Source: Rickettsiales bacterium (GTDB taxonomy: Bacteria; Pseudomonadota; Alphaproteobacteria; Rickettsiales; UBA1997). From it: a DNA stretch of 33,220 nt. The notes under the pieces are model-generated. The model saw only the letters and a list, made by a program, of their open reading frames with translations. It was not told the origin of the DNA and did no database searches. The position numbers were made by a program, and so were the translations under genes. Below, in pieces: positions 1 through 29,837 of the stretch. The stretch's first letter is position 1; each line of letters opens with the position of its first letter. The DNA lies in assembly GCA_023262945.1 (NCBI GenBank), contig JALQXY010000123.1:1-33220 (forward strand). Direction: 5' to 3'.

Positions 1-154
1 AAAAAACATATACAATCTAAACAATCTGACTTTATCTTTTTGGCTAAAAATTGCAAAAAGCCTTAAATCCTATAGGTATAGGACTTGCATTTTTTACAAT
101 TTTTATCTCAAAAAATATTTTGTCATATTGTTTATTTTTAGATGGGAATTGGTA
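1..154 (+). mobile_element. Type-1 MITE-like palindromic element, copy A (left end cut by window edge)
   Basis: Near-identical to 26950..27122 and 28133..28297, and to the reverse complement of 10051..10218. It ends in the right terminal inverted repeat TTTTTAGATGGGAATTGGTA at 135..154. Only about 15 bp of the left repeat are missing at the window edge. Confidence 0.75.
50..86 (-). terminator. Terminator-like hairpin inside element copy A, downstream of the NRAMP-like gene
   Basis: On the minus strand, a 9-bp stem (65..73 pairs with 78..86; one position becomes G-U in the minus-strand RNA) is followed by AAGGCUUUUUGCAAUUUUU. It lies about 80 bp past the stop codon at 167..169. Confidence 0.35.
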
Positions 155-6161: not shown

Positions 6162-6412
6162 TGTTAATAAATTGTTAATAACTGCAAAAAACTGTTAAAT
6201 AAAAAAAATTGTTAATTTTGTTAACAATTTTATTAACAGATAATAAAAGGTTAATAAAAAAAATAAGATAAATTAAAAAATGTAAATAATTCTATAAAAT
6301 TTTATTTTTAGTGCTATATTTACTTTTTTTATGTTAAAAAAAATGTTAATAACATGTTAAAAAAACTTACAAAATAATTAACAACTTTATTAATATTATT
6401 ATATTTTATTAA
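6162..6412. promoter_or_regulatory. Divergent queD/hemE control region densely populated with GTTAA motifs; candidate CtrA-type sites or replication origin
   Basis: GTTAA on the plus strand starts at 6163, 6174, 6194, 6211, 6220, 6250, 6333, 6345 and 6356. TTAAC starts at 6221, 6233 and 6378. TTAA-N7-TTAA pairs occur at 6164..6178 and 6346..6360. The spacer lies directly upstream of hemE. Confidence 0.45.
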
Positions 6413-7445: not shown

Positions 7446-8771
7446 CTAATCTTCAATTTTTGGTACTATTTTTTTAATCTCTTCTTGTACTATTTTTTCA
7501 ACAATATCGGGTAGATATGAATTTATCCATCTTTCAATTTTAGGCTCCATTATTTGTGCGGCAATTTTTAACATCTCTTCGCTTTGCGTAAAATTAGAAG
7601 CTTTTCCAATAATATTCTTTGCATTAGTTAGTTTTTCGAGCGCTTTTGAAGTTCTTGCCAAAGTAGATTCGTAAATCATTGATTTTTTTTCTTCATCTTG
7701 CACCTGTTCGACATATGTATTTTTCATATTATCAAGCTCTTCTAATTGATTGTCATTTTCGTCAATTTCATTATATTGCTCTTCATATTGATCTTCTATC
7801 GAATTTTCTATATCTTGATTTTGTTCTAGATTATCAAGATTTATTTCATTGTTAACATTATTATCTATTGGTAAATCTAGAGATTCTACATCATCTTCTT
7901 TTAGATCGATATCGCTATACTGATCTTCTTCTAATAAATCTTGATCTTCTTCTATTGAATTTTCTACATCTTGATCTTGTTCTAAATTATCAAAATCTAT
8001 TTGATTATTAATTGATACATCTATAGATTCTATATCATCGTCTTGATTAAATATATCTATTTCTTCATCATTTGTAGTTTTATTATCTAAGTACTCATTA
8101 TTTTGATCAGAAGAGACGGAAGTTCGTCTTTGAATAGGTTGATTATCTTTTTCCGATTCTATGTTATCTGTTTTAGAATAATTTGCGTATTCGATATTAT
8201 TATTTTGATCTAAGTCATCATAACTATCATCTATCTCATTACTTAAAGATGAGTTATCTAAATCCAAATCATCACTTTCGATATCATTATTTGTTTTTTG
8301 TACTTTTTCTAGTTCATTTGACATTTCATCGGATAATATGTTATTATTATCATTTAATTGAAATAAATCATCATCTATTGTTGTTTCTTCGTTATCTATT
8401 TCTTCTTTTTTTATATTAAAATTGTTATCCGAGTCTGTTTTTTTTATATATTCTTCATTATTTTTTTCTTCTGATATTTTAGATGTATCACTTTTATCAT
8501 CATTTTTAAAGTCTAAATTATCAAACTCTTCGTCGAAATCATCAAACTCCTCAAAATCATCATCTAATTTTGGTAAATTATTACTCTTATTATCTTCTTT
8601 TTTTGTGCTTTCTTTAAAATCTATTGAGTTATTATTTATCATATTATTTTCTTCTTCCAGATTATTTTCTGTATTTATATCTACAGATTTTTTTTTATCC
8701 TTACCAAGATCAAAATTATTAATCTTGTTTTTTATAGATTCTAAAATTGATAGAGTATTTTTTTGCGACAT
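7446..8771 (-). CDS. popZ: PopZ-like polar organising protein (DUF2497-type C-terminus) with an expanded hyper-acidic linker
   Basis: The N-terminus MSQKNTLSILESIKNKI matches the PopZ N-terminal helix pattern (..MEEILASIRRII..). The C-terminus QIMEPKIERWINSYLPDIVEKIVQEEIKKI matches the PopZ/DUF2497 block (LRPLLKEWLDENLP.IVE..V.EE). The roughly 330 aa in between are D/E/N-rich low complexity and contain a tandem duplication. Confidence 0.65.
   Translation of the reverse strand: MSQKNTLSILESIKNKINNFDLGKDKKKSVDINTENNLEEENNMINNNSIDFKESTKKEDNKSNNLPKLDDDFEEFDDFDEEFDNLDFKNDDKSDTSKISEEKNNEEYIKKTDSDNNFNIKKEEIDNEETTIDDDLFQLNDNNNILSDEMSNELEKVQKTNNDIESDDLDLDNSSLSNEIDDSYDDLDQNNNIEYANYSKTDNIESEKDNQPIQRRTSVSSDQNNEYLDNKTTNDEEIDIFNQDDDIESIDVSINNQIDFDNLEQDQDVENSIEEDQDLLEEDQYSDIDLKEDDVESLDLPIDNNVNNEINLDNLEQNQDIENSIEDQYEEQYNEIDENDNQLEELDNMKNTYVEQVQDEEKKSMIYESTLARTSKALEKLTNAKNIIGKASNFTQSEEMLKIAAQIMEPKIERWINSYLPDIVEKIVQEEIKKIVPKIED
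7791..8039 (-). repeat. In-frame tandem duplication inside the popZ-like linker
   Basis: Protein residues 245-277 (DDIESIDVSINNQIDFDNLEQDQDVENSIEEDQ) recur at residues 293-327 (DDVESLDLPIDNNVNNEINLDNLEQNQDIENSIEDQ). The matching nucleotide units at 7941..8039 and 7791..7895 are visibly similar. Confidence 0.8.
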
Positions 8772-9315
8772 TTATTTTTAAGAAGATTTTAAATTAAAAA
8801 CAAAAATATAAATTAACAACAAATCATATCTTAATTCAGTAAAACCAATGTAAATCAAGCAATTTTGAGGAATTTTTGAGGGAGATTTAATAAAAAATTG
8901 ATTATTAATCATTTTTTTTTTTTTTTATTAAATCGGCAATTATTCTTTAAATTTTAACGTATCAAGATATACGAGAATTTAAAAAATAAAAATAACAACA
9001 AAAATACTAAAATTCTTTGATTTGTAGAGTTCTTTTAGTTTATAGCAAAATATTTTGTTAAAAATACTAATTAAAGATAAGATTTGGCATTATATATAAA
9101 TACAATCTTTAAAAAGAAAAATACCTTTTTAATTAGATTTGCTAAATTAATTTATATTTAAAAAAGATAAATTTTAATAAATTAAAAGATAGTTTTTGAT
9201 ATTTTAACCTATAATAATCAATCAAATTTTATATTTTTATTGGTCAATTTTTTTTTATGATAAATTTAAAAAATAAAATAACGATAAGATTACTAAAATT
9301 GATAATAAACTGAGA

Positions 9316-10014: not shown

Positions 10015-10050
10015 CTTAAGATAGCAATATATCGAATAAATTTAGAATTA

Positions 10051-10218
10051 TACCAATTCTCATCTAAAAATGAACAATATGACAAAATATTTTTGAGATA
10101 AAAATTGTAAAAAATGCAAGTCCTATACCTGTAGAACTTAAGGCTTTTTGCAATCTTTAACCAAAAAGATAAAGTCAGATTGTTTAGTCTTTATATGTTT
10201 TTTAGGTGGGAATTGGTA
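10051..10218 (-). mobile_element. Type-1 MITE-like palindromic element, copy B (complete, inverted orientation)
   Basis: Bounded by TACCAATTCTCATCTAAAAA (10051..) and TTTTTTAGGTGGGAATTGGTA (..10218). A TA dinucleotide sits immediately to the left. The interior is the reverse complement of copies A, D and E. Confidence 0.8.
10100..10139 (-). terminator. Terminator-like hairpin inside element copy B, downstream of rpmE
   Basis: The minus-strand RNA reads AAGUUCUACAGGUAUAGGACUU (an 8-9 bp stem with one mismatch) followed by GCAUUUUUUACAAUUUUU. It lies about 80 bp past the rpmE stop codon. Confidence 0.35.
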
Positions 10219-10479
10219 TTATTCGTTCATAAAATCAAGATTGCCAAATTTTTTCTTAAATTCCATAACTCTTTTATCGCTAGAATTAACAAATCCTTGA
10301 TTGTCTTTTTGCCAAGCTGGATGATTTTTAGGATCAATATCTAACTTTAAAACATCCCCTTCTTTACCCCAGCTAGTCATAATTTGAAATTTATAACCGT
10401 CAGTCATTTCAACATTAACCAAATGTTGTTTTGGATGGGTTAATTCTGTATTCTTAGATTTTGTTTGATTAGTAGACAT
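10219..10479 (-). CDS. rpmE: 50S ribosomal protein L31
   Basis: 86 aa. The core VEMTDGYKFQIMTSWGKEGDVLKLDIDPKNHPAWQ matches the alphaproteobacterial L31 pattern (..TRSTWGKEGDTLNLDIDP..HPAWTG). Confidence 0.8.
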   Translation of the reverse strand: MSTNQTKSKNTELTHPKQHLVNVEMTDGYKFQIMTSWGKEGDVLKLDIDPKNHPAWQKDNQGFVNSSDKRVMEFKKKFGNLDFMNE

Positions 10480-10700
10480 TTTTGAAAATATATATTTAGA
10501 AAATTAAATAATTATCGATTAAATCGCCAAAATCAGCCAATTTATGAAAAATGTATAAGATACATATAGCATATTAATGTTAAAGTCAAGTTTTTCAATT
10601 AAAAGACCCTTTTATACTAAATCCAATCTTTAAAAGTTTTGAAAAAATTAAAATTCTAGCCACATGTTTTTAGCTAAAAATCTCTAAAAAGACTCAGCTA

Positions 10701-10755
10701 TACCAATTCCCATCTAAAAATGAACAATATGACAAAATATTTTTGAGATAAAATT
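10701..10755 (-). mobile_element. Type-1 element, copy C (truncated, left 55 bp only)
   Basis: TACCAATTCCCATCTAAAAATGAACAATATGACAAAATATTTTTGAGATAAAATT matches 10051..10106 almost base for base. It is preceded by TA. Similarity stops at the nuoG stop codon (10756..10758). Confidence 0.75.
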
Positions 10756-12783
10756 TTAATTATTTTCAGCGCTACATTTATTAAGTATGCGTGAAGCGCG
10801 AGTAATCGGATTTGTAAGATAAAAATCATAATCTTGAGCCGATATATCGCCGCTAACATTTAAAGAGTTTTGTTTATCTTTTAGCCATTTGCGATCTAAT
10901 TCATTGATTGAGCTTTCTTTAAGATTCAGTTCTTTGATTAATTTTTTTATTAATTCTTGGCTATCGTTAAATCCTAAATCAATATCTAAATATTTTGCTA
11001 AATTTAATATTATTTCAACATCGTTCATTAGGTTAGCTATACCTAAAATTGATTTTTGGGTTTTTTGTATTTTTCCTTCAATATTAATATAAGAAGATTC
11101 TTTTTCGGCAAAAGTCAATCCTGGCAATATAACATCAGCAATATGAGCGCCTTTATCTCCATGAGACCCTATATATACTACAAAGCAGTTCTTGAGACTT
11201 TCAAAGTCAATGTCATCGTCAACGGAATGTAATATTATCATCTTAACATCTCCGGCTTGACATTGCTCAATTATGCTTTTTACAGAATGAGATCCTGTAA
11301 ATTCTAAGGCAAGACCATTAATTAAACCAGACTCTTTGGCTAAAAAGTTAAAACCATTCCAATTATCTTGAATAAAGTTAAATTTATCAGCAATAGCTTT
11401 AATAACTTTTATAATATCAAGGCTATTATATTTATTTACAGCATCGCTACCAACAATTAGCATTGGTTTTTTAGCTTTTTTAAGGTCTTGATTAATTTGA
11501 GATTTTTGTTGTAAAATATCAATAAGAGCCGACGAATCATTGCCAAGATTTTGATATTTATAGCCCAAATCTTTTTCGCAGCCAATTGCTGCTATTTTTA
11601 ACTCGCCACTTAAATATCTTTTACGAATTCTGGCATTAACAATAGGCGCATCTTTTTTTGGATTTACTCCAATTAACAAACAAAAGTCGGCCTCTTCAAT
11701 TCCAGAGATTCTGGTATTAAATAGATATGATTCTCTGTCGCTTGCTGTTAATTTTTCGTTTCTTAAGCGACAGTCAAAGCGACTAATGTTGGCATTTTGA
11801 CATATTTTTTTAAAAGCAAAAATTTCTTCCAAAGAGGAAAGATGTCCAGTTAATAGGGCTATTTGATCTGAATTTAGTAAGTTAAATTGTTTGCTAATAC
11901 ATGAATAAGCCTCTTCAAAAGAAGAAGATTGCAATTTGCCATCAATTTTGATATAAGGCTTGTCGAGTCTTTGATATTTAAGGCCATCATAACAAAATCG
12001 AGCTTTATCTGAAATCCATTCTTCGTTAATATCTTCATTGGCGTTTGGCAAGATTCTCATAACTTCTAGGCCTCGTGAATCAATGCGTATATTACTACCA
12101 ACTCCGTCCATAATATCTATAGAGTTAGTTTTTTTTAATTCCCAACTACGAGCTTTAAAAGAATAAGGTTTTGAAGTCAAGGCTCCAACTGGACATAGAT
12201 CTATAACATTTCCAGATAGTTCAGAGGAGACGGATTTTTCAAGATAGGTGGTTATTTCCATGTTTTCACCTCGACTTACGGCTCCTAATTCGCAAGTGCC
12301 AGCTACATCTTCGATAAATCTAACGCATCTAGTACAATGAATGCAGCGCGTCATGTGGGTTTTTATTAGTGGCCCCATATATTTATCTTTGACAGCTCTT
12401 TTATGCTCATTATAGCAACCCTCGCCTTTACCATATTGATAAGCTTGATCTTGTAAATCGCACTCTCCACCTTGATCACAAATCGGGCAGTCAAGTGGAT
12501 GGTTGGCCAATAAAAACTCCATCACGCCTTGACGCGCCTTAATTACCATATCTGAATCGGTTTTTATTTCCATGCCATCATTTATGGGCATAGCGCATGA
12601 AGCAATTGGCTTTGGAGGTCCGCCAACAACTTCAACTAGGCACATGCGACAGTTGCCCGCAATTGCTAATTTTTCATGATAACAAAAGCGAGGTATCTCG
12701 ATATTCAGCTGTTCGCAAGCTTGTATTATGGTTAAACCTGGCTCAACTTGGTATTTTTTTTTGTTAATAGTTATTTCTGGCAT
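10756..12783 (-). CDS. nuoG: NADH-quinone oxidoreductase subunit G (75-kDa subunit)
   Basis: 675 aa with an N-terminal 2Fe-2S ferredoxin fold (CYHEKLAIAGNCRMCLVEV) and the 4Fe-4S cluster motifs HPLDCPICDQGGECDLQD and CIHCTRCVRF. The remainder is a molybdopterin-oxidoreductase-like domain. Confidence 0.92.
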   Translation of the reverse strand: MPEITINKKKYQVEPGLTIIQACEQLNIEIPRFCYHEKLAIAGNCRMCLVEVVGGPPKPIASCAMPINDGMEIKTDSDMVIKARQGVMEFLLANHPLDCPICDQGGECDLQDQAYQYGKGEGCYNEHKRAVKDKYMGPLIKTHMTRCIHCTRCVRFIEDVAGTCELGAVSRGENMEITTYLEKSVSSELSGNVIDLCPVGALTSKPYSFKARSWELKKTNSIDIMDGVGSNIRIDSRGLEVMRILPNANEDINEEWISDKARFCYDGLKYQRLDKPYIKIDGKLQSSSFEEAYSCISKQFNLLNSDQIALLTGHLSSLEEIFAFKKICQNANISRFDCRLRNEKLTASDRESYLFNTRISGIEEADFCLLIGVNPKKDAPIVNARIRKRYLSGELKIAAIGCEKDLGYKYQNLGNDSSALIDILQQKSQINQDLKKAKKPMLIVGSDAVNKYNSLDIIKVIKAIADKFNFIQDNWNGFNFLAKESGLINGLALEFTGSHSVKSIIEQCQAGDVKMIILHSVDDDIDFESLKNCFVVYIGSHGDKGAHIADVILPGLTFAEKESSYINIEGKIQKTQKSILGIANLMNDVEIILNLAKYLDIDLGFNDSQELIKKLIKELNLKESSINELDRKWLKDKQNSLNVSGDISAQDYDFYLTNPITRASRILNKCSAENN

Positions 12784-15243: not shown

Positions 15244-15402
15244 AACCAAAAACCCTTGACTAAGAATTAGATTTATATTAAATTTGTTAATTGATATTTT
15301 ATATATCAAACAAAATTAATTTTTAAAAAAATAAACAGAATTAACACAATAAATTAATTCGTTAATAATTTTGACAATATTAATCAATTTTAAATATAAG
15401 CA

Positions 15403-16125
15403 ATGTCTAATTTTAACAATAAATCTTTTTCGTACGCGTCAGTTGCTAGTAAAGGCGTATCTTACGATTCTTCTTTAAGAGAATATATGCTTAAAGTTTA
15501 CAATCACATGGCTATAGCTCTTGGAATTTCAGGCCTGATTGCCCTTTTTGTAGCCAGCTCTTCTCAGCTTATGCAGGCAATTTTTACAACCCCTTTGTTT
15601 TGGTTGGTTGCTTTAGCGCCGCTTGGCTTTGTGATGTTTTTTAGTTATAAATTAAATTCAATTTCAGCAGCGCAAGCTAAAAAATATTTATATATTTATT
15701 CAGCGCTAATGGGGCTTTCTTTGTCCAGTATTTTTATAGCCTATACCGCTGCAAGTATAACTCGCGTCTTTTTTGTAACCGCTTCGGTTTTTGGAGCTAT
15801 GAGCATTTATGGCTATACAACTAAAAAAGACCTAACTTCATTCGGCTCCTTTCTAATCATGGGCTTGTTTGCTGTTCTTATATCTATGGTAGTAAATATA
15901 TTCTTAAAAAGCCCTGCTCTTTACTTCGCAATATCAATAATAGGATCTTTGATATTTATTGGCTTGACTGCTTATGATACTCAAAAAATAAAGCAGTCAT
16001 ATTATCAATTCGCTGGCAATGGTGAGGCTACAAGCAAAATGGCGGTGGTTGGGGCATTAAGTCTTTATATGGATTTCATTAACTTATTTATCATGATGCT
16101 TCGTCTTTTTGGCGAAAGAAGGTAA
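15403..16125 (+). CDS. Bax-inhibitor-1/YccA family membrane protein
   Basis: 240 aa with seven hydrophobic spans. The N-terminal segment LREYMLKVYNHMAIALGISG and the C-terminal segment ALSLYMDFINLFIMMLRLFG are typical of the BI-1/YccA family. Confidence 0.8.
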   Translation: MSNFNNKSFSYASVASKGVSYDSSLREYMLKVYNHMAIALGISGLIALFVASSSQLMQAIFTTPLFWLVALAPLGFVMFFSYKLNSISAAQAKKYLYIYSALMGLSLSSIFIAYTAASITRVFFVTASVFGAMSIYGYTTKKDLTSFGSFLIMGLFAVLISMVVNIFLKSPALYFAISIIGSLIFIGLTAYDTQKIKQSYYQFAGNGEATSKMAVVGALSLYMDFINLFIMMLRLFGERR

Positions 16126-23723: not shown

Positions 23724-23799
23724 TTTGCAGGAGTCTTTTAAAGTTAAAAATCCAATTAAAGATTAGATTTGGTATTATTAATAATTATTTTTTCATAAA

Positions 23800-26840: not shown

Positions 26841-26856
26841 TGTTTCACGTGAAACA
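26841..26856. promoter_or_regulatory. parS: parS centromere site 1 (perfect palindrome TGTTTCACGTGAAACA)
   Basis: Exact match to the palindromic form of the conserved chromosomal parS consensus (TGTTNCACGTGAAACA). It lies 41 bp upstream of the parB start codon. Confidence 0.85.
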
Positions 26857-26874
26857 TTTTAGAATCTTTAGTAG

Positions 26875-27157
26875 CTTTAAATCCTAACCCGCCAATAGAA
26901 AGTTGGCTTGGTCATTAAATAGGGCTAGATGCGCTATGGCATAATGGTATAATAGCAACTCTTACCTAAAAAAACATATAAAAACTAAACAATCTGACTT
27001 TATCTTTTTGGCTAAAAATTGCAAAAAGCCCTAAGTCCTATAGGCATATGACTTGCATTTTTTACAATTTTTATCTTAAAAAATATTTTGTCATATTGTT
27101 CATTTTTAGATGGTAATTGGTATAAATCAACTTTCTATTGACGGATTTGGGTTAAAT
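26875..27157. repeat. Type-2 palindromic element, copy 2, interrupted by a type-1 element
   Basis: The left arm CTTTAAATCCTAACCCGCCAATAGAAAGTTGGCTTGGTCATTAAAT and the right arm CAACTTTCTATTGACGGATTTGGGTTAAAT are inverted repeats of each other and are homologous to the ends of 1455..1627. The type-1 element 26950..27122 sits between them. Confidence 0.6.
26950..27122 (+). mobile_element. Type-1 MITE-like palindromic element, copy D (nested inside type-2 copy 2)
   Basis: Full-length copy with a somewhat degenerate left repeat (TAATAGCAACTCTTACCTAAAAAA) and the right repeat TTTTTAGATGGTAATTGGTA. TA flanks it on both sides (26948..26949 and 27123..27124). Confidence 0.8.
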
Positions 27158-27235
27158 ACTAAATTCGATGCTATTGTTTAAATTTCATGATTTTTTGGGT
27201 AATTTTAAATAAAATTTGATTATAATTTACAATCA

Positions 27236-28009: not shown

Positions 28010-28132
28010 TAATGTTGTCTAAAAATGTTAATTATTGATATCTTCAAAAGATAACTTTGTATTAAAAGCCCTTATAAATCAACGAAATTTGTTAATTTTA
28101 TTTATAATTAATTTATTTTATTTGCAGCAATG

Positions 28133-28297
28133 CTAATTCTCATCTAAAAACATATAAAAACTAAACAGCCTGACTTTATCTTTTTGGCTAAAAATTGCAA
28201 AAAGCCCTAAGTCCTATAGGCATAGGACTTGCATTTTTTACAATTTTTATCTCAAAAATATCTCGTTATATTGTTCATTTTTAGATGGGAATTGGTA
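28133..28297 (+). mobile_element. Type-1 MITE-like palindromic element, copy E
   Basis: Near-identical interior to copies A and D. The left repeat is shortened (CTAATTCTCATCTAAAAA). The right repeat TTTTTAGATGGGAATTGGTA is followed by TA. A perfect 9-bp stem, AAGTCCTAT/ATAGGACTT, spans 28209..28230 and is followed by GCATTTTTT. Confidence 0.8.
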
Positions 28298-28475
28298 TAA
28301 GTTGCAAATTACTTGAAAGCTAAAACTTTCTACATCATTTGTGTCATTATTTTTATTTTTTTAATTCGCGATCTTGATACACTAATTTGAATTTACATAG
28401 ATCTTTTAGATTCTAATCTTGTTTTTGTCTAGAAATTATAAAAAGCCTTAAAATTTGTTAATTAAAAATCATAAA

Positions 28476-28491
28476 TGTTTCACGTGAAACA
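28476..28491. promoter_or_regulatory. parS: parS centromere site 2 (TGTTTCACGTGAAACA)
   Basis: Perfect 16-bp palindrome in the tadA-parA spacer. Confidence 0.85.
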
Positions 28492-28575: not shown

Positions 28576-28591
28576 TGTTTCACGTGAAACA
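28576..28591. promoter_or_regulatory. parS: parS centromere site 3 (TGTTTCACGTGAAACA)
   Basis: Perfect 16-bp palindrome exactly 100 bp from site 2. It ends one base before the tadA stop codon (28592..28594). Confidence 0.85.
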
Positions 28592-29042: not shown

Positions 29043-29837
29043 TTATATTGCTAATGCTTTAGTAAATAGTTTATGAAAATTATTTGTGGTATTTGTTTTG
29101 ATTGTTTCACGTGAAACATTTTTTAAAGTAGCTATAAAATCAACGATATATTTAGTAAAAGCTGGCTGATTTATTTTGCCACGATTGGGGGATGGAGCTA
29201 AATAAGGGGAGTCAGTTTCGACTAATATTCGATCTAAAGGGATAAATTTAACCAATTCCTGCAACTCTTTAGCGTTTTTAAAGGTAACAATTCCCGAGAT
29301 AGAAATATACATTCCTAGATCTAGAGCTGTTTTTGCTAAAGATTTTGTACTTGAGAAGCAATGTATCAATGCTGGAAACGATTTATTTTTTTGTTCGCTT
29401 TGCAGTATGTCTGCCATATCTTTGTCTGAATTACGATTGTGAATTATGGTAGGTAGTTGCGATTGCTGAGAAGATTTGATATGCTCAATAAAGCTATCTT
29501 GTTGCTTTTTGATAAAGGAGGTATCATGATAATAATCAAGGCCAGTTTCTCCTATTCCAATAATTTTAGGATTTTGCTGGATAATTGACAATATTTGCTG
29601 CGAAGAGTAGATCCCTTCTTGATTAACGTTGCATGGATGAACCCCAACCGAGGCGTAGATATTTTTGTATTTATTAGCGAAGTAGATAATGTTATCAATT
29701 TCAGAAATCTTAGTGCAAATAGTTTGTAACAATCTGACATCATTTTCTTGAGCATTTTTTACAATTTCATCGATATTAAAGCCTTTTTCTAAAATTAGAT
29801 CTAAGTGACAATGGCTATCAACAATATAATTATTCAT
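29043..29837 (-). CDS. tatD: TatD-family metal-dependent hydrolase (DNase)
   Basis: 264 aa with the N-terminal motif DSHCHLD, then GVHP, GETGLDY, IHNR/IHCF and ETDSPYL. Confidence 0.88.
   Translation of the reverse strand: MNNYIVDSHCHLDLILEKGFNIDEIVKNAQENDVRLLQTICTKISEIDNIIYFANKYKNIYASVGVHPCNVNQEGIYSSQQILSIIQQNPKIIGIGETGLDYYHDTSFIKKQQDSFIEHIKSSQQSQLPTIIHNRNSDKDMADILQSEQKNKSFPALIHCFSSTKSLAKTALDLGMYISISGIVTFKNAKELQELVKFIPLDRILVETDSPYLAPSPNRGKINQPAFTKYIVDFIATLKNVSRETIKTNTTNNFHKLFTKALAI
29103..29118. promoter_or_regulatory. parS: parS centromere site 4, embedded in the tatD coding sequence
   Basis: Perfect TGTTTCACGTGAAACA. On the coding (minus) strand, GTT TCA CGT GAA ACA encodes V-S-R-E-T within the TatD segment KNVSRETIK. 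Confidence 0.8.

Follow-up and report, generated by a model that had tools for sequence, protein, structure and literature searches.

The window (the whole stretch of DNA analyzed, 33,220 nucleotides) has a GC content of ~30% and carries alphaproteobacterial housekeeping genes – nuoG, rpmE, ssb, aroK/aroB, an NDUFS4-like gene, leuS, dxs, asd, a hisC-like gene, parB/parA, tadA, tatD, nadD and ubiA. The best relatives of its NuoG share at most 70% identity, and the best ParA relative (79%) belongs to GCA_002335845.1, a marine-metagenome MAG. The host is most likely an uncultured marine Rickettsiales-like alphaproteobacterium, a placement made because some NuoG matches (61-63% identity) are labeled 'MAG: Rickettsiales bacterium' and because virB8/virB9 adjoin nuoG in the closest relative, GCA_030835905.1. 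The same sequence, 99.4-100% identical, was recovered in several independent assemblies from ENA, Logan and JGI, and the repeat described below is carried by ENA assemblies ERZ27267617, ERZ27267624, ERZ2944636 and ERZ27299088 and by Logan assemblies SRR14560419/20 and SRR30352470/1; since these assemblies are independent, the element is no assembly artefact.

A replication origin adjacent to hemE is classic in alphaproteobacteria. In the window, hemE is preceded by a very AT-rich spacer (6162-6412, with 24% GC in the 6-7 kb bin) and the sign of the GC skew flips near 15-16 kb (~15300-16000), where aroK and BI-1 diverge, so that, given also the nearby parS cluster, a replication origin may lie close by. 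The ORF at 7446-8771 (- strand) encodes a 441-aa protein that is extremely acidic, of low complexity and rich in N, D and E; a C-terminal DUF2497 is its only recognizable domain, and the ORF contains internal repeats (7792-7900 vs 7948-8044).

Five copies of a non-coding unit of ~168 bp are present in the window, three of them full, one cut by the window edge and one truncated (Table 1). In the repeat search, the segments 1-155, 26969-27123 and 28145-28299 grouped in direct orientation, and 10032-10220 and 10699-10756 joined them in inverted orientation. The first-pass annotation had described five copies of about 170 bp at these places that align almost base for base. The copies and their positions were confirmed by the repeat search, a MAFFT alignment, a scan with the 20-mer of the terminal inverted repeat (TIR) and nhmmer, and the near base-for-base match was borne out by MAFFT, with identities of 88-96%. 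The TIR 20-mer matched nine times in the window against 0.22 matches expected, a count reached by none of 100 shuffles. Copy coordinates were then refined to a TACC...GGTA register and checked against the printed sequence.

Table 1. Copies of the repeat and associated features; coordinates refer to the window unless a contig is given.
Feature	Coordinates	Strand	Description
Copy A	1-154	+	5' end cut by the window edge; right flank 155-157 = TTA
Copy B	10051-10218	-	Full, 168 bp, both TIRs; flanks TTA at 10048-10050 and 10219-10221 (+ strand), i.e. TAA on the - strand
Copy C	10701-10755	-	5'-truncated; last ~55 bp with right TIR; abuts nuoG stop codon
Copy D	26953-27122	+	170 bp; left TIR degenerate, TAGCAACTCTTACCT; TAA at 26950-26952 and 27123-27125; in the parA-parB spacer, nested in the second inverted-repeat element (26872-27161)
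Copy E	28131-28297	+	167 bp; left TIR TGCTAATTCTCATCT; flanks CAA (28128-28130) and TAA (28298-28300); in the tadA-parA spacer, parA start 122 bp downstream
Central hairpin (copy E)	28208-28231	.	AAGTCCTATAGGCATAGGACTT, 9-10 bp, T-run after it on either strand
Candidate decayed remnant	28420-28451	+	TTTTTGTCTAGAAATTATAAAAAGCCTTAAA, 87% identical to internal segment; nhmmer E=0.05, marginal
Copy F	L026 (ERZ27267624) 12454-12770		Beyond mlaE; outside the window
Copy G	L031 2085-2255		Between purM and an aminotransferase gene; outside the window

The element measures 155-171 bp, with ~168 bp being typical. Its consensus ends read TACCAATTCCCA(C/T)CTAAAAA ... TTTTTAGATGGGAATTGGTA, with 20-bp TIRs (TACCAATTCCCAYCTAAAAA / TTTTTAGATGGGAATTGGTA) around a core that contains a central hairpin. 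The palindromic character extends beyond the TIRs, the entire unit being imperfectly palindromic, with a single long hairpin as its predicted fold (RNA -47.4 kcal/mol, z = -7.3; DNA -23 kcal/mol, z = -4.6). The central hairpin fits a simple intrinsic-terminator pattern in both directions; it is perfect in copy E only and carries one or two mismatches in copies A, B, D, F and G. Among the six full copies, compensatory changes were absent from all 63 predicted base pairs and pairing was disrupted by several substitutions, which speaks against a selected RNA structure and suggests that the copies are neutrally decaying relics of a burst. Coding capacity was likewise lacking, with at least two stops in five of the six consensus reading frames and one stop near the start in the sixth; no called ORF in a 5.8-billion-protein database matched the six-frame peptides of the element. 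Promoter-like matches inside the element were at chance level (12 vs 15.3 expected), and Rfam gave no match at gathering score, a relaxed search returning sub-threshold hairpin look-alikes only.

The family extends beyond the window. Seven copies were found in 47.4 kb of the same genome, a density that should not be extrapolated to the rest of the genome as the window was chosen for its repeats, and an nhmmer profile of the copies run on the merged 47.4 kb recovered exactly the seven loci A-G plus the one marginal remnant. An eighth copy, detected by a 27-mer scan of JGI metagenomes on contig L025, lies in another gene context and comes from another sample; it is only 97 bp long, its center having been deleted between two 7-bp TTTATCT repeats. 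All eight copies are intergenic. Copy A is complete in other assemblies, where it is 155 bp long and situated 12 bp past the Nramp stop codon; a tRNA-Arg(TCG) gene (L026 11429-11505) starts 4 nt after its end. Positions 1-19 of the window differ from the matching bases of copy A in ENA contigs L026 and L027, in which the left end of copy A reads like a second right end (…GATTGTTCATTTTTAGATGGGAATAGGTA), and the left edge of the window probably reflects a contig end at which the assembly ran through a collapsed repeat. Several short-read contigs (L024, L027, L028, L032, L033, L036 and L037) start or stop inside copies, as expected of a multi-copy repeat in de Bruijn assemblies, and the left edge of the window falls within copy A.

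Searches for the element in viral contigs, plasmids, phage records and the literature returned no related sequence. A scan of viral contigs and a blastn search against PLSDB plasmids gave no match, blastn against phage records gave one 40-bp chance match and nothing else, and the degenerate TIR 20-mer TTTTTAGRTGRNAATTGGTA gave at least 22 single chance matches across genome contigs from unrelated taxa; among the matches listed, none carried more of the element by BLAST. Nothing specific on the TIR string or on Rickettsiales MITEs appeared in the searchable literature. The earlier statement that the repeat is not recognizable as a named family therefore holds for Rfam, PLSDB plasmids, phage records and the searchable literature.

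Comparison with relatives and strains showed where the copies are absent. No copy was found in three syntenic relatives (70-79% protein identity; 22 + 12.8 + 17.4 kb around nuoG and parAB). The parA-parB spacer is 83 and 40 bp long in relatives vs 436 bp here, and the tadA-parA spacer 125 and 217 bp vs 582 bp. At a closer distance, JGI strain L030, with a NuoG 99% identical, lacks a ~130-bp segment corresponding to copy C and ~75 adjacent bp, while copies D and E are retained in all sampled strains that are ~99.4% identical in DNA. Since the relatives have no copies and the ~99.4% strains retain D and E, the expansion would have followed the separation from the 70-79% relatives, and most of it would have preceded the divergence of the ~99.4% strains. 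The family thus consists of multiple dispersed copies with presence/absence variation (seven loci in 47.4 kb, the copy on L025, and copy C absent in L030). Taken with the absence of conservation at syntenic positions, the further copies found elsewhere agree with the original description of a mobile repeat as opposed to conserved regulatory sequence. Four perfect parS palindromes (TGTTTCACGTGAAACA) surround parA/parB (26841-26856, 28476-28491, 28576-28591 and 29103-29118), one of them inside tatD; three parS sites are kept at equivalent places in relative L038 (5352, 5932 and 6820), and the extra parS of the tadA-parA spacer may date from the expansion of that spacer.

The bases flanking the TACC...GGTA unit were compared in consensus orientation. 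Specifically, the left and right flanks are TAA/TAA in copies B and D and TTA/TTA in copies F and G, a 3-bp direct repeat T(A/T)A that is perfect in four of seven copies; the pairs in the other three match at two of three bases (CAA/TAA in E, TTG/TTA in A and TAA/TAG in the L025 copy). In all seven copies, the left and right flanks agree at their middle base (A in four, T in three; exact test p = 1/35). This concordance opposes an extension of the TIR or a palindromic target, both of which predict complementary bases. Among other registers and lengths (2-9 bp) outside the conserved bases, none equaled the 3-bp T(A/T)A. The 'TT on the right' of some copies, seen in the first-pass annotation, is explained as the start of a TTA duplication.

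A paralogous site was available for copy D, as the element that hosts it has a paralog at 1448-1632. The paralog reads GATA-TAA-ATTAATTTTCTATTG and so carries TAA just once at the corresponding point; the D-bearing element reads GGTA-TAA-[D]-TAA-ATCAACTTTCTATTG; after removal of copy D and one TAA, the two align without a gap across the junction. Alignments with one or both TAA retained were near-equal (96 vs 95), which is consistent with a duplication and not decisive. Copy F harbors a third, unrelated element and exceeds the family consensus by the length of that element plus 3 bp. The seven flank pairs, which lie in AT-rich DNA, and the one paralogous site point to a putative 3-bp T(A/T)A target-site duplication. 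At copy B, one half of the duplication (10219-10221) is the TAA stop codon of rpmE (L31) on the - strand; the insertion of copy B hit this stop codon, which was regenerated by the duplication. The spacer between rpmE and the downstream hydrolase gene was only ~33 bp long before copy B inserted.

TIRs combined with a short duplication of fixed length are the hallmark of insertion by a DDE transposase. The overall reading, which we hold with good confidence, is that of a family of non-autonomous, non-coding ~168-bp MITEs that recently multiplied in an AT-rich marine Rickettsiales-like alphaproteobacterium; the family is new, but elements of this kind are well known. The initial view of a non-coding, TIR-bounded, MITE-like element, presumably mobilized in trans and expanded in a compact genome, was upheld by the structure, the copy number, the absence from relatives, the strain polymorphism and the flanking duplications. 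In the proposed mechanism, a presumed DDE transposase of a presumed family, encoded elsewhere in the genome or lost, would bind both TIRs, and the unit would be excised or copied and then inserted at T(A/T)A trinucleotides, the cuts being staggered by 3 bp and their repair yielding the 3-bp target-site duplication. TAA and TTA are frequent where spacers are AT-rich, and TAA also serves as a stop codon; copies would thus land between genes and at times exactly on a stop codon, which the duplication would restore, as in rpmE. Subsequent decay would be neutral, through point changes, truncation (copy C), internal deletion (the L025 copy) and nested insertion by other elements (copy F).

As had been stated for the window, no transposase gene was present among the Pfam labels of all called genes across the region, and neither a transposase nor an autonomous element with matching TIRs was found in the ~47 kb examined, implying either mobilization in trans or an extinct partner. 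A relative whose ParA is 75% identical carries a ~1.37-kb IS5-family IS (contig L041, 1-1366) with DUF772, DDE_Tnp_1 and DDE_Tnp_4 domains and the TIR AAGACCCCTGCRAATC, which is found terminally on an ENA contig and also on a JGI contig; its presence shows activity of IS5-type elements in this clade. This IS, the only one seen, was considered as the partner and rejected, its ends being unrelated to the termini of the element (TACCAATT...). IS elements of the IS1031 group (IS5 family) are listed in ISfinder with a 3-bp TNA duplication, and the IS30, IS3 and IS982 families give duplications of 2-4 bp. Because the duplication is 3 bp long, restricted to A/T and of the TWA type, as in Tourist-like MITEs/PIF-Harbinger and in the IS5 family (IS1031, ISL2, IS427), an IS5/Harbinger-like enzyme (IS5/IS1031 or PIF/Harbinger) is the single most likely partner, a tentative assignment held at clearly less than even confidence. 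Enzymes of the IS30, IS3 or IS982 type are possible alternatives and an IS630-type partner is unlikely. Canonical Harbinger elements have 3-bp TSDs and have been grouped with IS5, IS427, IS1031, IS903 and ISL2 (PMC12730594), and elements of the IS5 family, IS1031 and ISWpi1 among them, are common in members of the Rickettsiales, for example Wolbachia (PMC3205602).

The first-pass annotation had suggested a TA duplication of the IS630/Tc1-mariner type, while calling it unproven. On this reading, CCAATT...AATTGG would have been inserted at TA by an IS630-family transposase. TA...TA does bound nearly every copy (2 bp, shift -2: exact in five of seven) and Rickettsiales, Wolbachia among them, carry IS630-family elements (PMC3205602). 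This TA, however, belongs to the conserved terminus TACC...GGTA, where it is as conserved as the other terminal bases and indistinguishable from the TIR, so that it is uninformative; the informative flanks are the 3-bp direct repeats outside it, and these, with their middle base concordant in seven of seven copies, are left unexplained by a TA duplication. A palindromic TA context would moreover predict complementary flanks whereas identical ones were observed, the paralogous empty site of copy D would need five extra bases that are absent, and no IS630 transposase was seen in the region. A TA duplication is therefore not supported and an IS630-driven origin is given a low probability. Also to be weighed is a selfish palindrome spread without a TIR-binding transposase, whether RPE-like, REP/BIME-like via RAYT, or by recombination or gene conversion. 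The whole unit is indeed palindromic and not its ends alone, the host is Rickettsiales-like and Rickettsia palindromic elements (RPEs) likewise have no known partner transposase, and at least three palindromic families co-occur and nest here like pneumococcal BOX/RUP/SPRITE (PMC10969869). The 20-bp TIRs with a 3-bp duplication nevertheless mark DDE insertion and not RAYT or IS200-type chemistry; REPs are 20-40 bp long vs the 168-bp unit here, RPEs often lie in-frame within ORFs (PMC10969869) whereas all eight copies here lie between genes, and the called genes of the 47 kb include neither a RAYT nor a Y1 transposase, making such an origin quite improbable.

A function for the host, with the element kept by selection as a bidirectional terminator/attenuator cassette or as a small RNA family, would fit the central hairpin and T-runs, which match an intrinsic terminator on both strands, and the position of copies after gene ends (Nramp, rpmE and nuoG). 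Known cases of terminators and sRNAs carried by MITEs include SPRITE and the sRNAs derived from QMITE (PMC10969869). The imperfect hairpin in every copy except E, with one or two mismatches and no compensatory changes, runs counter to selection on structure, as do the lack of the element at the same loci in relatives, the near-identical strain without copy C and the absence of any Rfam family match. Copies E, G and F, in addition, occupy promoter-side spacers, and copy D sits inside the parA-parB operon. Copy A lies 4 nt before the tRNA-Arg, so that transcription of this tRNA has to cross the element or be shared with Nramp, and this argues against efficient termination by copy A. A selected host function is accordingly regarded as very improbable, and the MITE reading is retained.

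Several known systems resemble the element in general design. Correia and RUP elements duplicate TA. Prokaryotic MITEs in general (Correia/NEMIS of Neisseria, RUP of S. pneumoniae, QMITE1/2 of Coxiella, ERIC) share with it a size of ~100-300 bp, the lack of an ORF, the presence of TIRs, a short flanking duplication, numerous intergenic copies, strong hairpin potential, nesting with other repeats and presumed mobilization in trans; nothing similar in sequence was found in Rfam, PLSDB, phage records or the searchable literature. The duplication also differs, being a 3-bp T(A/T)A here vs direct repeats of 7-9 bp for QMITE2 (PMC10969869). RPEs are alike in being ~150-bp palindromic selfish repeats without a known partner transposase, of which several families occur within a Rickettsiales-type reduced AT-rich genome; they are set apart, by description, in belonging to the genus Rickettsia and lying in-frame in protein genes (PMC10969869), whereas the present element is intergenic with TIRs and a TSD. 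SPRITE-type terminator repeats share the hairpin with T-run, the clustering and the nesting, but their host and sequence are unrelated and the hairpin of the present element is decayed in most copies. REP/BIME are 20-40-bp palindromes without TIR or TSD and with RAYT, in contrast to a 168-bp element with both TIRs and TSD. A review of prokaryotic MITEs notes that small repeats cluster and nest mutually (BOX/RUP/SPRITE) and that SPRITE hairpins are terminator-like (PMC10969869).

The element itself is biologically ordinary, and its use lies mainly in strain typing, assembly and annotation. With it, a MITE family not catalogued before, and perhaps two others, come to light in a little-known lineage of uncultured marine alphaproteobacteria related to Rickettsiales. 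The family also illustrates that a compact, gene-dense genome can still suffer a burst of selfish DNA. For annotators, the enlarged parAB, rpmE and tRNA-Arg spacers are insertions and not regulatory regions; the element accounts for break points of the metagenomic contigs of this organism, the presence or absence of copies can serve as a strain-typing marker, and the 3-bp TWA duplication provides a lead toward the mobilizing transposase.

In addition to this family, other repeats were evident in the same region. A second inverted-repeat family is represented at 1448-1632 (Nramp/ADH spacer) and 26872-27161 (parA-parB spacer), with ~34-bp arms such as TAGCTTTAAATCCTAACCCGCCAATAGAAAGTTG, and looks like another MITE. 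A third palindromic element of ~145 bp (TIR AGACTTCTTTCG...) is nested in copy F (L026 12571-12714, ERZ27267624). It is missing from the otherwise identical contig L027 (ERZ27267617), which ends in a repeat 57 nt further, so that a chimeric end is possible; the difference between L026 and L027 may be a recent insertion polymorphism. A broader scenario, which we consider rather doubtful, would have at least three nested MITE families recently invading a possibly free-living, early-branching lineage as an independent RPE-like invasion, with a TWA transposase favoring TAA stops and terminator hairpins rewiring operons; if true, a bidirectional terminator would split parA-parB, part rpmE from its downstream gene and occupy the tRNA-Arg leader. 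Finally, an unusually long and very AT-rich intergenic region of 544 bp (8772-9315) has repeats in common with other spacers (8959-9005 vs 28337-28380; 9057-9102 vs 23743-23787) and includes a 48-bp stretch (9047-9094) with 71% similarity to the right end of the element; this region may be decayed repeat debris.
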